Shown here piece after piece: positions 8,783 through 14,984 of a stretch of 64,000 nt of DNA (position 1 is the stretch's first letter; each line of letters starts with the position of its first letter). Under the pieces are notes generated by a model that was not told the DNA's origin, searched no databases, and saw only the letters and a program-made list of their open reading frames with translations. Made by a program: the position numbers and the translations under genes. The stretch spans positions 19,840-83,839 of the forward strand of contig SHUG01000003.1 in assembly GCA_009694735.1 (NCBI GenBank). Reading direction: 5' to 3'. The stretch comes from Acidobacteriota bacterium (GTDB lineage Bacteria; Acidobacteriota; Vicinamibacteria; Vicinamibacterales; UBA2999).

Positions 8783-8997
8783 CGTCCAATTCACATGCGC
8801 GGTGGCTATACTCGACCCAAGACCATGTCTCGCCGCGCCCTTCAGCTGGTGATGATGGGCGACCAGCGTAATCCCACTGCCCGCGACGACGTCCGCGCGG
8901 CCCGTGCCGCGCGCGCACGGGGACGGTTCGACGATGCAAACGCGTTCTTCCGGGATGCGGACGGTCTGGCGCGTTGGCTCCATGTGAATGTTAACCG
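8783..8997 (-). other. attC site 7, split by an inserted copy of the TPR gene 5' region
   Basis: Right half gcgttggctccatgtgaatgttaacc (8971-8996) matches the other attC arms; a complementary arm attcacatg survives at 8789-8797. Confidence 0.6.
8801..8972 (+). repeat. Diverged, internally deleted duplicate of the TPR gene promoter and 5' end
   Basis: 8801-8837 matches 15443-15479 and 8831-8972 matches 15803-15944, joined at a cgccgcg microhomology. Confidence 0.9.
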
Positions 8998-9246
8998 GAA
9001 CGGTTCTTCGTCGCCGGCACTAAACGAGGCATTCAGGGTCAGCATGAGGATCGATTGCGCCTGATCCTCGGTGCGCTCAATGCAGCAACGAGCCCCCAGG
9101 ACTTGAACTTGCCCGGTCTGGGCCTCCATGAACTTCAAGGGAGTCGCACAGGCACCTGGGCGGTCAAAGTCAGCGGCAATTGGCGCGTAACTTTCGAGTT
9201 CGCCGGTAACGATGCTGAGCGCGTGGATTACGAAGACTATTACTGA
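8995..9246 (+). pseudogene. higB: HigB (RelE-family) toxin, 5'-truncated
   Basis: Reads ERFFVAGTKRGIQGQHEDRLRLIL...WAVKVSGNWRVTF...VDYEDYY; an in-frame TAA at 8992 sits where the start and first ~10 codons should be. Confidence 0.8.
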
Positions 9247-9255
9247 GGACGACCG

Positions 9256-9543
9256 ATGAAGATGTACAACCCACCGCACCCGGGCGAAGTGCTCCGCGAA
9301 CTGTGCCTGAAGCCGCTGGGCCTGACCGTCACCCAAGCCGCTCGGGGGCTGGACGTCAGCCGCAAGACCTTGTCCGCCATCTTGAACAGCCGCGCGGGGA
9401 TCAGCCCTGAGATGGCTGTTCGTTTGTCGCTGGCCTTCGGCACGAGCGCCGAGAGCTGGATGAACCAGCAGACCCAATACGACCTTTGGCACGTCGAGCG
9501 GCGCCGCAAGAAGCTGCATGTCGCCAGGTTGTCTGCCGCTTGA
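9256..9543 (+). CDS. higA: HigA HTH antitoxin
   Basis: [42 protein letters not shown]. Confidence 0.92.
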
Positions 9544-9568
9544 TTAGTTGATGGCTCGTTTCAATTCC

Positions 9569-9646
9569 GGCTAACGATTCAAATGAGCCGCGCCCGCAGA
9601 CGCCCGTGAACGGGTCAAGGGCGTCGGCTCCATTTGAAGGTTAGCG
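9569..9646 (-). other. attC site 6
   Basis: Minus strand CGCTAAC-cttcaaatggagccg...cggctcatttgaatc-GTTAGCC; 78-bp imperfect palindrome with one unpaired base. Confidence 0.85.
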
Positions 9647-9656
9647 GGCCGCTTGC

Positions 9657-9875
9657 TTACGCCGTCACTGGCATGAGTCGGTAGACCCGGCTGGCCAATC
9701 GCGATGCACGCCGGGGGTCACCGGACCGCAGCGCCTCTCGGACCTCGTCGAGCCGGTACGCGTCGCCGATTGACAGGTACGGCGCCCAGCCGCCCTCGGC
9801 CTCGAGGAGATCGACGTCGACTTCCGCAACGAAGTCGCCCTCGCGGACCAGTCGCTTGGTGGTCTTGGTGCTCAT
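9657..9875 (-). CDS. Small protein coupled to DUF4258, putative antitoxin
   Basis: 72 aa; ATGA overlap with the DUF4258 stop; ends 10 nt before the attC. Confidence 0.7.
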   Translation of the reverse strand: MSTKTTKRLVREGDFVAEVDVDLLEAEGGWAPYLSIGDAYRLDEVREALRSGDPRRASRLASRVYRLMPVTA

Positions 9876-10194
9876 GTTCGTCTCTTCAGCCACGTCTCAT
9901 CCCATCTTGCCGGATCTGGCCTGTACGCGGTGATCAAAACTGCCGGAGACGTTTGTCCCTCCGGAATGCCCCAGACGACGTGTACGGGCTTGCCTGTCTT
10001 GTCCTGCTCAAGCACGAGCACACAGGGGCCTTTCGGAAACTCGGGGTAGTCCTCAATGACTACTGCCGCCCCAGCCCATCGACCACTTCGTGGACGAGAA
10101 CCTGATCGGCTGCGAGTTCCTCGTATCCATAAACAGAAACACGCACCTCTGCGCGGGCCACCAGTGCTCGCACCTGCTCCAAAGTCTGACTCAC
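9872..10194 (-). pseudogene. DUF4258 (putative RNase toxin), frameshifted near 10068
   Basis: MSQTLEQVRALV...EVVDGLG, then shifted frame AAVVIEDYPEFPKGPCVLVL...HVVWGIP...LITAYRPDPARW. Confidence 0.75.
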
Positions 10195-10250
10195 CGCCTT
10201 GGCCCGTCCGTCATCGTGTAATCGTGTTGTCTCGGGATGGTCCTGTCCGT

Positions 10251-12441: not shown

Positions 12442-12849
12442 TCATGGATGCGAGCGTCGCCGCAGAAGGCGCGCGCGGAGTTGAACTTGGTCATGGTCGT
12501 TGATGTCCAGTAGCTCGACGGTCGCGCGTCCCTCCGAAGTCAGCCCCTTGATGGTCCCATCAGGCTAAGATGAGAAGTGCTCTCGCCACGCGTGGCGCCT
12601 GGGGTGGTAGAGCGCCACGAGAGAGCCGGTCTCGGGGTCGATCGACGCGATATTCGGGCCCTTCTTCAAGTTGCAACGGATACAGCACAAGCACAAGTTG
12701 TCGACCTCGTCTGTTCCACGATGCTGCCGACCGATGATGTGGTCGACCTGGTGAGGCAGAATCGATGCGCTCTGGGGACCGCGGCAGTACTCGCACGCAC
12801 CATGAGCGCGGCGCTGAGCCAGCTCCCGCAAATCGCTCGATACCTTCAC
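12442..12849 (-). pseudogene. HNH endonuclease with premature TAG at 12565-12567
   Basis: CEYC, QVDHII, NLCLCCIRCNLKKG; frame continues after the stop as PDGTIKGLTSEGRATVELLDIN. Confidence 0.8.
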
Positions 12850-13061
12850 GATGCCGCGCGCATCGTCCAGAACTGCTCGGCCTCCAGCTTAAGGAGGCTC
12901 AGCATGTCGTTCAAACGAACGACTTCCGAGTACTCCTTCTGATCCTCAGGAGTGAGAAGGCCCGCGGTGCTCTTCTCGGCGAGCTCTTCGACTCGTGGGG
13001 CCAAGTCCTTGCTGATGGCGTCGAGCGCCGCTTCGAGCTGCTCCAACGTGTGCTTTTCCAT
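12846..13061 (-). CDS. Small acidic helical protein coupled to the HNH gene, putative antitoxin/immunity protein
   Basis: 71 aa, RVEELAEKSTAGLLTPEDQKEY; GTGA overlap with the HNH start. Confidence 0.7.
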   Translation of the reverse strand: MEKHTLEQLEAALDAISKDLAPRVEELAEKSTAGLLTPEDQKEYSEVVRLNDMLSLLKLEAEQFWTMRAAS

Positions 13062-13149
13062 AAGGTTCTCCGTCGCCGGCACTTGCGGCAGCATGCCACC
13101 GATCCGCGGTCGCCACAAGCGCGGCACGGAGCGAGCCCGCCCAGTAGCC

Positions 13150-13302
13150 ATCGTGCTGCCCGCGCCGGATCGACCACCGTCTACGTCGGTTCACGGGGTC
13201 GGCGCTCCCCCCGGTAGGGTCGAGGCGGGCCTCATGATTGTCACGGCCCGCCCCACGCTCTTGGCTCAGTCCGTCGTTCTCTCTCCGGTTCGTTCTTTTT
13301 CC
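13150..13302 (-). repeat. ORF-less cassette element, copy B
   Basis: Contains ggcgggcc-gtga-caa-tcat-ga-ggcccgcc and cgccgaccccgtgaaccgacg; starts at the GTT of an attC. Confidence 0.7.
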
Positions 13303-13376
13303 AGCCAACGCCCGGCTTCAGCCGCGGCGGCTCTCAGCATTTCACTCGCCGCCGTCGGCTGCAAGCCGTGTTGGGC
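13303..13376 (-). other. attC site 2
   Basis: Minus strand GCCCAAC-acggcttgcagccgacggcggc...gccgccgcggctgaagccgggc-GTTGGCT; 74 bp. Confidence 0.9.
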
Positions 13377-13444
13377 GGCTCATCCAAGTCGTGCAGGGCG
13401 TCGTCAGCGCACCGTGAGACCGTTATCGACAAGGTTCAGAATTC

Positions 13445-14374
13445 CTAGTTGGACGCTCTCTCTGGCGCGGCTGGTCCCATGCCAGCAACCAGAAGCCAGA
13501 GGTCCTCATCCTTCGTCCCCTCGTAGTGCGTGCCGTTCGCAAAGTCGTGAATGTACGACCCCTTCGGCATTCCGACTGTCTTGTCCTTGTCGACGGACGA
13601 TCCCGCGCCAATGTACATGCGTCCGCCCATGACCCAGACGAATTGATCGTTGGCGTGGCGGTGCGCCGTGCTCCAGCTATTCGGTGGCCGGCGGACAAAC
13701 TGAACGTACAGGCCGGCTTTGCCCGGATCACCAAAGACATTGACGAACGTGCTGCCGTCGGCTGCTTTGGTCCACGCCATATCTTCCAGTTTCTTGGCTA
13801 CACGCGCAGTCGGGTCGACATTCGGTCCACCAGGGGCACGAGGTGCCTCGTTGGCCGGGCCGCTATTCGTCCCACCCAGTCCGATAAAGAACAGCGTCAC
13901 TCCATCTTGCCCCACGCCGTCGTAATGCATTCTTCCGGGGACTTCGCTGACAACCGTGCCGCCCCTCAGGGCATCCACTCGATTCCGATCTTGAACTGGC
14001 CCTGTGCCGGCCAGGAATGTTCCCTCGAGCACCGTGCCGTAGCGTTCCGTCGGGTGAGTGTGGGGGGCGCTCCAATTGTCGAAGGGGCGTCTCAGGAGCG
14101 AGACATAAATTCCGCCCGGTTTTGACGCGTCGCCGTAGAGCGTGAGACTTCCAGTGCCATTCCGCTCGACCCACGGAATCTCTGACGGCAGCTTGTAATC
14201 GCGGATGCTGCGATCCAGCGTGACGGGGGCCTGTGCCGCGACTGGCACAATGAGGCCAAGCTGTTTACTGATGACATCCCGCTGAGGGATTGCAGGCCAG
14301 AGCGAGACGCTCGGGCAGATTGCGAGCAGGACGAGAAATCGAAGCAGGAGCTTCTGTGATTTCGACGTTGTCAT
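13445..14374 (-). CDS. Probably secreted tandem cupin-domain protein (cassette cargo)
   Basis: Hydrophobic N-terminus; two repeats of GDxxKxGxYV...WSxxHxH...HYxG; GGAG RBS before ATG 14374. Confidence 0.75.
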   Translation of the reverse strand: MTTSKSQKLLLRFLVLLAICPSVSLWPAIPQRDVISKQLGLIVPVAAQAPVTLDRSIRDYKLPSEIPWVERNGTGSLTLYGDASKPGGIYVSLLRRPFDNWSAPHTHPTERYGTVLEGTFLAGTGPVQDRNRVDALRGGTVVSEVPGRMHYDGVGQDGVTLFFIGLGGTNSGPANEAPRAPGGPNVDPTARVAKKLEDMAWTKAADGSTFVNVFGDPGKAGLYVQFVRRPPNSWSTAHRHANDQFVWVMGGRMYIGAGSSVDKDKTVGMPKGSYIHDFANGTHYEGTKDEDLWLLVAGMGPAAPERASN

Positions 14375-14690
14375 AATTCGCTCTCCAGTTAGATGATAGT
14401 CCGCATTGGCGGGGCCGGTCACGGAAGACGCGGTGTTCCCCCTTGTCGCGTCGCCCCTTCGGATCGTGTACTTCAACCACGGGCAGGGCAGCGGATGGTT
14501 CGCGAACGGTTTGAGTGAACGACTGACCAGACATGTTCTTGACGTTGTTCCACAGCGGGGCATCGGCGACATGTGCGACGTTGGTCGCAAGAATCAGCCG
14601 CGACGTGCTCCAAGCCAACGAATCATGGCGACCAATGAGACAACTCATCGTTTTCAAAGCTCTCGCCGAAGATTCTCTGGAAACCTGCCT

Positions 14691-14763
14691 AGACAACGTT
14701 CGCGCTCACCCGCGAGCGCGCACCAGACGACCCGCGCGAGTCGGGTGGAGCGCCCTGTTGGGT
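14691..14763 (-). other. attC site 1
   Basis: Minus strand ACCCAAC-agggcgctccacccg...cgggtgagcgcgaac-GTTGTCT; 73 bp. Confidence 0.85.
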
Positions 14764-14984
14764 TCTTGTTCGTCGTCGTCGCGTTCTTGCCGTGCCTTGA
14801 TCATCCGCGCCGCCGACGCTCGGTTCGCCAGGTCGGCGGGGGAGTTCCGTTCCGGATCGTCGCCGCCTACCGCATCGACTTCCGGCGGGCCTCATGGTTC
14901 GCCACGGCCCGCCGACGCCGCGCCGGACTCGGTCGCCGTCACATCGTTCGGTTCTCTTTCGTTCGTGTCTTTCGTCTACCCAAC
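14764..14984 (-). repeat. ORF-less cassette element, copy A (complete cassette body, possible ncRNA)
   Basis: Starts GTTGGGT, exactly complementary to the ACCCAAC of its own attC; two hairpins shared with copies B and C. Confidence 0.7.

Follow-up and report, generated by a model that had tools for sequence, protein, structure and literature searches.

The 64,000-nt stretch of contig SHUG01000003.1 analysed here (an Acidobacteriota bacterium of the Vicinamibacterales, assembly GCA_009694735.1; hereafter the window) carries an island of ~6.7 kb between a DUF1801 gene (8288–8707, minus strand) and a TPR / Peptidase_MA_2 gene (ATG at 15467), and the question that this locus raises is what the island is and how it came to lie there. 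A preliminary description made from the sequence had read positions 8783–14984 as an integron-type array of gene cassettes with seven attC sites and no integrase. The array was likened to attC-site clusters that have no integron-integrase (CALINs) and was held to explain the whole island. CALINs are common, and their origins are debated among integrase loss, rearrangement and insertion at genomic sites. We conclude that the island is very probably a CALIN, an integron gene-cassette cluster without an adjacent integrase, that would now be a decaying relic and would have arrived by general recombination rather than through an integrase. The locus is a clear case from a poorly studied soil and freshwater phylum, with flanks that record the arrival of the cluster.

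An attC covariance model recognises five of six palindromes

Six imperfect palindromes of 73–83 bp on the plus strand (a1–a6, Table 1) begin exactly at the positions first given for them, and their start-to-start spacings from a1 onward to a6 are 1309, 739, 617, 1069 and 1388 bp. They were compared with known attC sites by means of a covariance model, R1, trained on 13 plasmid-borne attC sites of class 1 integrons (aadA1, aadB, aadA2, catB3, gcuF, gcuC, cmlA5, aacA4, VIM-4, dfrA27, dfrA12, dfrA1 and arr-3) read as the bottom strand. The training sites were taken from R100 and from ten plasmid records found with IntI1, each turned so that intI1 lay on the plus strand; aadA5, smr (interrupted by an insertion sequence, IS), the aadB copy in L003 and the oxa10/aadA1 junction were excluded, their ends not being cleanly delimited. 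The consensus of 18 pairs and two bulges was written by hand.

Scanned over the 64 kb on both strands with filters off, R1 gave nine matches at E values up to 10. All palindromes except a4 were matched over the full model length, on the plus strand and with the same ends as in the preliminary description (22.6–35.5 bits, E 7e-7 to 1.5e-3). Besides the reverse strand of a1 (9569–9646, minus strand; 17.7 bits, E 0.029), nothing elsewhere in the 64 kb scored below E = 1.2, and the three such weak matches all lie outside the island. In 84 kb of plasmid DNA used as a control, R1 found only three known attC sites, all of them training sequences or copies of these. A second control comprised 267 kb from 16 related Acidobacteriota loci (L013–L028), collected by a scan with the TPR protein using one genome per species; these relatives are other species (59–88% amino acid identity), and the window genes were placed in them by tblastn. 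Only two sites were found there, both in L024, and a third L024 site appeared with filters off. The attC/cassette architecture is thus upheld by a model made from known attC sites, and the covariance-model check that had been proposed, carried out here with our own model, accepts five of the six sites but not a4. Since R1 represents the bottom strand and all matches to these sites are on the plus strand, the cassettes are read on the minus strand, the direction that all sites had been said to face. A second covariance model, made from Acidobacteriota sites, was dropped when the left arms were misaligned by MAFFT.

On the plus strand, an attC would open with an R' box (nnnnAAC) and close with an R'' box (GTTnnnn), and the imperfect L'/L'' stem between them would carry two extrahelical bases on its 3' arm. 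The terminal motifs claimed for the sites stand at the right end, where GTTnnnn closes all six palindromes, but hold only in part at the left end, where nnnnAAC is clean in four and degenerate in a3 (11617) and a4 (12234). The stop codons of vapC (10955–10957) and hicB (11691–11693) do lie inside the R'' box GCATAAC of two sites, as had been noticed. The suggested folding of the bottom strands gave a similarly divided result: a1, a2, a3 and a5 form long single-stranded hairpins that none of 200 shuffles equalled, with two one-base bulges on the 3' arm (plus strand) that line up with the bulge columns of R1, but a6 is marginal and the minimum-energy fold of a4 is not the hairpin; stems with the extrahelical bases are seen neither in a4 nor in the half site at 8973–8996. 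We read a4 as a decayed copy of a6 because it is 86% identical to 14696–14761 within that site. The attC sites of the array fall in similar pairs, and a5 is 74–76% identical to attC sites of L023 and L024. Recombination of these sites as folded single-stranded DNA by an integron integrase is a prediction from their sequence. Instead of the seven attC sites first counted, the array holds five that are supported by the model, one decayed copy and one truncated half, and none is split.

It is scarcely credible that the palindromes are ordinary intergenic hairpins, such as terminators or repetitive extragenic palindromic (REP)-like repeats, in a toxin-antitoxin island. The sites are indeed GC-rich and lie 3' of gene ends, and toxin-antitoxin genes cluster in many kinds of islands. 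Against this, a model trained on nothing but attC sites matches them over their full length, strand-specifically and with nothing else in the 58 kb of flanking DNA, their ends read nnnnAAC and GTTnnnn with bulges at the canonical places, no T runs were seen 3' of a1–a6, and the same family forms a second array in L024.

Table 1 Features of the island and its borders (positions in the window; R1, attC covariance model; fold z, z value against shuffles).
Feature	Position	Strand	Remarks
Native upstream DNA with the first 13 nt of the TPR gene (left copy)	8757–8837	+	ATG at 8825; covers 8783–8800
Internal TPR gene fragment	8831–8972	+	codons ~113–159 (TPR +337 to +478); 94% identical to 15803–15944
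Truncated attC	8973–8996	+	3' half of the bottom strand only; R'' box GTTAACC at 8990–8996
Cassette C7	to 9574	+ (inverted relative to the array)	higBA cargo 8995–9543
attC a1	9569–9646	+	78 nt; R1 35.5 bits, E 7e-7; fold z −6.1
Cassette C6	9575–10883	−	78-aa partner gene 9657–9893, DUF4258 gene, 46-bp leader 10203–10248, IS91-type remnant
IS91-type remnant	10251–10816	−	Pfam Phage_int_SAM_4 (53 bits) and Y2_Tnp; NCBIfam IS91 transposase
attC a2	10878–10960	+	83 nt; R1 24.2 bits, E 5.9e-4; fold z −4.3; vapC stop within R'' box
Cassette C5	10884–11622	−	cargo 10955–11577: vapB 11371–11577, vapC 10955–11374; both apparently intact
attC a3	11617–11696	+	80 nt; R1 22.6 bits, E 1.5e-3; fold z −3.9; R' box degenerate (GGCTATG); hicB stop within R'' box
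Cassette C4	11623–12239	−	cargo 11691–12148: hicB 11691–11957 and broken hicA; Pfam HicB_lk_antitox, HicA_toxin
attC a4	12234–12306	+	73 nt; probable decayed paralogue of a6; left box degenerate (GCATTAC); R1 7.9 bits (local search)
Cassette C3	12240–13308	−	cargo 12565–13151: 101-aa protein of no known family (12846–13151) and 94-aa HNH nuclease (12565–12849; Pfam HNH)
attC a5	13303–13376	+	74 nt; R1 32.6 bits, E 3.8e-6; fold z −5.1
Cassette C2	13309–14696	−	381-aa secreted cupin protein 13445–14590; Pfam Cupin_7 and Cupin_2
attC a6	14691–14763	+	73 nt; R1 24.4 bits, E 5.4e-4; fold z −2.2
Cassette C1	14697–14983	−	no convincing open reading frame; non-attC part 14764–14983; nearest the junction; no Pfam or Rfam match; repeat families D9, D11, D12, D17
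Terminal core box ACCCAAC and inverted repeat ACCCAA/TTGGGT	14978–14995	+	box 14978–14984, crossover 14983/14984; attI-like junction
Non-coding right flank ('platform')	14984–15442		459 bp; not in empty-site relatives; common only to L023
Right copy of promoter-proximal 24 nt and intact TPR / Peptidase_MA_2 gene	15443–17968	+	ATG at 15467; Pfam; chromosomal anchor of the island

No integrase gene accompanies the array

The definition of a CALIN by Cury et al. 2016 (Nucleic Acids Res, PMC4889954) comes with a search for intI over 10 kb on each side. Here, at least two attC sites recognised by the model share a strand, each under 4 kb from the next and with no intI gene or pseudogene nearby, and the island falls under that definition because the window contains no integrase catalytic domain. 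To the left of the array, the 8.7 kb that the window holds showed no intI, and neither did the 49 kb to the right. PF00589 was absent from 21 + 43 open reading frames (ORFs) and from 130 further stop-to-stop frames of at least 91 aa covering 1–25000. A tblastn search with IntI1 returned a sole match of 64 aa in the N-terminal SAM-like domain (10613–10786, minus strand; 31% identity, E 0.004), and the catalytic part of IntI1 had no match in the window. The earlier statement that the array has no integrase therefore stands.

This match belongs to a remnant in cassette C6 in which the N-terminal SAM-like domain of a tyrosine recombinase is fused by a deletion to the C-terminus of a Y2 transposase. 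Against the NCBIfam integron-integrase model the 73-aa fragment reaches 21.2 bits, where the cut-off is 265, and the array thus lacks the intI of a complete integron. The IS91-family transposase C-terminus of the remnant is 51% identical to one from Mesorhizobium, and a Mesorhizobium plasmid has the same order, a tyrosine recombinase gene and then an IS91 transposase. Since the fragment is fused to the IS91 transposase C-terminus and the plasmid shares this order, we read it as IS debris and not as intI; identity alone cannot decide, as the fragment is ~30% identical to both IntI1 and the Mesorhizobium integrase. That the piece at 10541–10846 is a remnant of intI is unlikely, as it lies within the array in cassette orientation, directly 5' of the transposase C-terminus, with an order like that of the plasmid.

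Seven cassettes, four with toxin-antitoxin pairs

With the crossover set between AA and C of each left box, the array would consist of seven cassettes lying head to tail on the minus strand, the plus strand being the recombinogenic bottom strand of each attC. IntI would once have inserted and excised them on the folded bottom strands, presumably cutting between AA and C. Matching cassette ends had been noted as a further sign of such an array. When the first six bases of each cassette were compared with its own R'' box, 5–6 of the 6 bases matched in four of the seven cassettes, and 29 of 42 positions matched overall as against 20 of 36 for the boxes of the same site. This agreement was confirmed in those four cassettes, but 300 of 5040 permutations were as good, and it is only suggestive of mobile cassettes.

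Toxin-antitoxin pairs occupy four of the seven cassettes, and three of the four toxin genes (hicA, higB and the DUF4258 gene) are broken. The vapBC pair matches its families well (VapB_antitoxin at 69 bits; positions 1–119 of 120 of the PIN profile). In hicA, an in-frame TGA at 12104–12106 stands at an expected tryptophan codon, and the toxin-like DUF4258 gene of C6 is split over two frames (9872–10210 and 10060–10314; Pfam DUF4258). About 11 N-terminal codons of higB are gone where the gene abuts the half attC; its frame is open from 8995 with the first start codon, TTG, at 9055, and it covers only positions 32–90 of 91 of the HigB-like_toxin profile. Its partner higA (9256–9543) is intact (HTH_3; NCBIfam HigA, 111.5 bits). 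The HNH protein of C3 has an NCBIfam match that is partial only, to the HNH part of IscB. No resistance genes are carried by the cassettes. In a blastn comparison of the island with 72,556 plasmids, higBA and the IS91 part gave the only matches, and no cassette or attC matched.

The array now looks like a decaying relic, with one truncated attC, two degenerate core boxes, IS91 debris and three of four toxin genes broken; the damaged attC sites, the IS remnant and the broken toxins together suggest an old array that is no longer serviced.

A leader-like non-coding element occurs in three cassettes (12312–12372, 13178–13258 and 14769–14921). Its start is rich in purines, it has two hairpins, GGCGGGCC...GGCCCGCC and CGCCGACC..GAACCGA..GTCGGCG, and it lies once directly 5' of an ORF start (13151) and twice directly before an attC. 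No Rfam family was found over the whole window at gathering scores, nor over 8700–15500 at E up to 1, and the leaders have no Rfam name. Another leader, of 46 bp, is 96% identical between the window (10203–10248) and L023 (9538–9583), at a cassette start in both genomes, just past a GTTT-type box and running into an ATG beyond which the cargo differs. Their similarity suggests a cassette 5' module common to both genomes.

The island is absent from nearly all related loci

Among the related loci, ten (L013–L020, L022, L024) have the DUF1801 gene or the native promoter directly beside the TPR gene. Four more distant ones (L021, L025–L027) have no DUF1801 gene, and a mannosyltransferase gene adjoins the TPR gene. 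L023 is occupied and L028 is uninformative, so that the island is absent from 14 of the 15 informative loci. Since the DUF1801 gene is missing in L021, L025, L026 and L027, the intergenic region has gained DNA repeatedly. The TPR protein of the window is 84–88% identical to its orthologues in metagenome-assembled genomes (MAGs) of Vicinamibacterales type, with 88% at the closest locus.

The second array, in L024, occupies positions 1–5100 of a related isolate contig beside the same DUF1801–TPR locus, with three attC sites of the same family on the opposite strand (38, 26.7 and 14.4 bits). One of its cassette ORFs matches a lipocalin-like domain, and Pfam gives no family for the rest; genes for an IS110-family transposase and a trypsin-like peptidase follow, and the contig ends before any attI or intI could show. 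L014 was considered as another array and rejected, its 2.1-kb insert (7337–9478) being a single 713-aa ORF inside which a weak R1 match does not fold (z −0.3); this ORF lies between the mannosyltransferase and DUF1801 genes. Three loci (L021, L022 and L026) are titled Acidimicrobiia, Legionella sp. and uncultured cyanobacterium despite a syntenic locus of Vicinamibacterales type, probably through errors of MAG binning or labelling.

The left end carries a TPR duplicate and a truncated attC

The seventh attC of the preliminary description, a split site at 8783–8997, did not survive comparison with these relatives. Positions 8757–8837 are 80–93% identical to the DNA directly upstream of the TPR gene in the ten island-free loci, where the native upstream DNA reads ...ggcgtccaaatcacatgcgcggaggctatactcgacc...ATG with minor variation, and because this is native sequence, the supposed left arm at 8783–8800 is chromosomal promoter DNA. 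That arm is native in all ten island-free relatives inspected, the 231-nt stretch folds no better than shuffles (z −0.9), and R1 finds no full site at 8783–8997. What remains is the truncated half at 8973–8996, which is of the a1/a3 type (83% identical to the 3' arms 9620–9643 and 11670–11693; repeat family D3) and is joined to the internal TPR fragment at a GGCGC microhomology. The TPR gene start is in turn joined to this fragment by a 323-bp deletion between CGCCGCG repeats.

The left and right TPR copies differ at 8 of 142 positions, and six of these eight fall on the third position of a codon (binomial estimate ~2%). Because of this bias the duplicate fits better with two functional alleles than with a copy decaying in place. 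The left copy keeps its native upstream DNA, and the intact right copy has island DNA upstream of position −24. These features would be accounted for if the island came from a related strain that already carried it, which we consider the most likely source. At one end, homologous recombination within the TPR gene would have brought it in; at the other, the incoming DNA would have been broken inside its last attC and joined illegitimately, at the GGCGC microhomology, to TPR +478. The join would have created a second, partial and diverged copy of the TPR 5' end that later lost 323 bp. The direct repeats 8801–8837 and 15443–15479, which are 95% identical, could pop the island out and restore the empty site. 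The outer junctions lie away from the attC core sites and look like products of homologous and microhomology recombination. The array does not explain the whole island as first claimed, which also comprises the 459-bp flank at 14984–15442, the IS91-type remnant and the diverged TPR duplicate at 8801–8972.

The right end has an attI-like junction shared with one relative

At the right end, the terminal core box pairs perfectly with R'' of a6 (GTTGGGT/ACCCAAC) and is followed by the non-coding flank, in which we found no attC-like site (best 5.0 bits), no Pfam family in the open frames and no similarity to IntI. L023 carries a 1.17-kb insert at the same place, made up of a decayed attC (8944–9012; 11.9 bits, 74% identical to a5), a minus-strand ORF and a right flank (9588–10004) that is 81–82% identical to that of the window (14982–15470) with a 73-bp indel. 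The homology begins right past the core box AAC, and the DNA to the left of the junction differs, including the first cassette. In the window ACCCAAC is followed by G-TCATTTGGGTGTC, and in L023 CGCAAAC is followed by T-TCATATGGGTGTC. A tblastn search of all 16 loci (E limit 1e-4) gave no intI, in L023 to a distance of 10 kb. Such a pattern would be expected of a common insertion point, attI-like or attG-like, beside which the first cassettes differ; the site may be a former attI, a genomic insertion site of the type described by Loot et al. or simply a conserved cassette boundary.

The junction gives some weight to the idea of a complete integron elsewhere in the genome with the array as its satellite, IntI acting in trans and 14983/14984 serving as an attI-like entry site, although we regard this as doubtful. 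A common flank with homology from the core AAC onward and a different first cassette is the signature of a used insertion site, the ends of the first cassette match perfectly, five attC sites still score well, and half of the CALINs surveyed by Cury et al. 2016 (PMC4889954) lie in replicons that encode IntI. Yet no intI lies in the DNA to either side or within 10 kb in L023, and no recognisable integrase-binding repeats were seen in the flank. The two degenerate core boxes, the truncated attC and the broken toxin genes also speak against continued service, and the difference in the first cassette could also stem from a deletion.

A distinctly unlikely origin is that the array was built in place, with a distant integrase inserting cassettes one by one at attG (consensus GWT), and was never a piece of an integron. 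Cassette insertion at GWT sites has been shown and is proposed as the origin of small CALINs and single cassettes (Loot et al., bioRxiv 10.1101/2022.09.11.507474); the junction reads G/TT on the top strand, and there is no intI pseudogene. The 459-bp flank, however, is itself foreign to the chromosomal site, being absent from 14 of 15 relatives, so that array and flank came together, and the outer junctions lie in mid-attC and at TPR −24 rather than at core sites.

We also considered that the flank may be an orphan attI-type platform without an integrase, at which cassettes would be exchanged by IntI in trans, and that platform and array may spread as a unit between Vicinamibacterales strains by TPR-anchored recombination. 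Exchange in trans at such a platform would explain why the window and L023 have the same flank with different first cassettes. We think this rather unlikely; if it were true, an orphan platform spreading with its array would be an integrase-independent way to move whole cassette arrays.

Several points weigh against our preferred reading of a relic CALIN brought in by general recombination. R1 rests on 13 sites, five of them of one 60-nt type, and its E values are rough; the site at 12234 scores 7.9 bits only, and the hairpin of a6, of the same type as the others, is equalled by 4 of 200 shuffles. The complementarity of the cassette ends is not significant, and, should the source be a metagenome assembly, the breaks in the toxin genes could stem from errors of assembly. 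The acquisition route is deduced from one 142-bp duplicate with eight differences, and an integrase may exist elsewhere in the genome, in which case the word relic would be wrong.

Other features of the window

The window has a G+C content of ~65%, and that of the island is slightly lower (0.61–0.64). The genes of the window include a BatA-type operon, CarboxypepD_reg TonB receptors and phosphate-scavenging genes, and this content, like the closest relatives, assigns the window to the Vicinamibacterales (phylum Acidobacteriota). No tRNA genes were found in the window, and a reading as a tRNA-linked genomic island was dropped. The convergent mannosyltransferase and DUF1801 genes are separated by 46 bp (8242–8287) with two TCAATCGGTG copies around a CACCGGTG palindrome, which looks like a shared terminator and is not attC-like. 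Cytochrome oxidase subunit I is encoded in two overlapping ORFs (52377–53423 and 53375–54937; Pfam COX1 positions 17–307 and 308–428), pointing to a frameshift or an assembly error.

Comparison with known systems

At the level of single sites, the closest comparison is the bottom strand of the aadA1 attC of In2/Tn21 on R100 (NC_002134), which has in common with a1 the nnnnAAC/GTTnnnn ends, a AGCCGCGCC...GGCGTCGGCT stem, a bulged T and a second bulged base nearer the L box. The window sites differ in being 73–83 nt long instead of 60, in having C instead of G as the second bulge in a1–a3, and in their shorter spacers. Chromosomal attC sites of Acidobacteria are numerous enough to have received a taxon model of their own (Ghaly et al. 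2021, Commun Biol, PMC8352920), and the likeness that we can draw to the sites of that account lies in the host phylum only. Among the matches listed for Vicinamibacter and integron in the literature, none deals with such arrays by its title.

Vibrio-type superintegrons are sedentary chromosomal arrays rich in toxin-antitoxin cassettes. The island resembles them in its toxin-antitoxin pairs in four of seven cassettes, one pair inverted, and in attC sites that fall in similar pairs. In contrast to them, the array comprises just seven cassettes, has no integrase, lacks conservation in the lineage and has three of its four toxins broken. The criteria for sedentary chromosomal integrons quoted by Cury et al. 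2016 (PMC4889954) are lineage-wide presence or more than 19 attC sites; here there are at most seven sites, and 14 of the 15 informative related loci are empty.

The arrival proposed above is paralleled by homology-facilitated illegitimate recombination during natural transformation (Domingues et al. 2012, PLoS Pathog, PMC3410848), in which, as that account has it, one homologous anchor (here TPR) and a microhomology join give an insertion with a duplicated anchor fragment. Here, unlike in that work, the route is read from sequence in a lineage of uncultured type. The TPR duplicate, and the half attC where the microhomology join lies, suggest that a whole array was moved by general recombination. 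The locus supplies a few Acidobacteriota attC sites and one candidate entry site without an integrase, and leaves what is known of the integron mechanism unchanged. With respect to the CALINs described by Cury et al. 2016 (PMC4889954), the island is alike in being small (about 5–7 sites), in its non-resistance cassettes and in its IS debris. It differs from that description in flanks that record its arrival, where the target gene has a diverged duplicate and the terminal attC is truncated, and in a non-coding flank with an attI-like junction common to one other genome. As a CALIN it is ordinary, rich in toxin-antitoxin cassettes as chromosomal arrays typically are, and mildly new in its readable arrival history and in the integrase-less junction that it has in common with a second genome.

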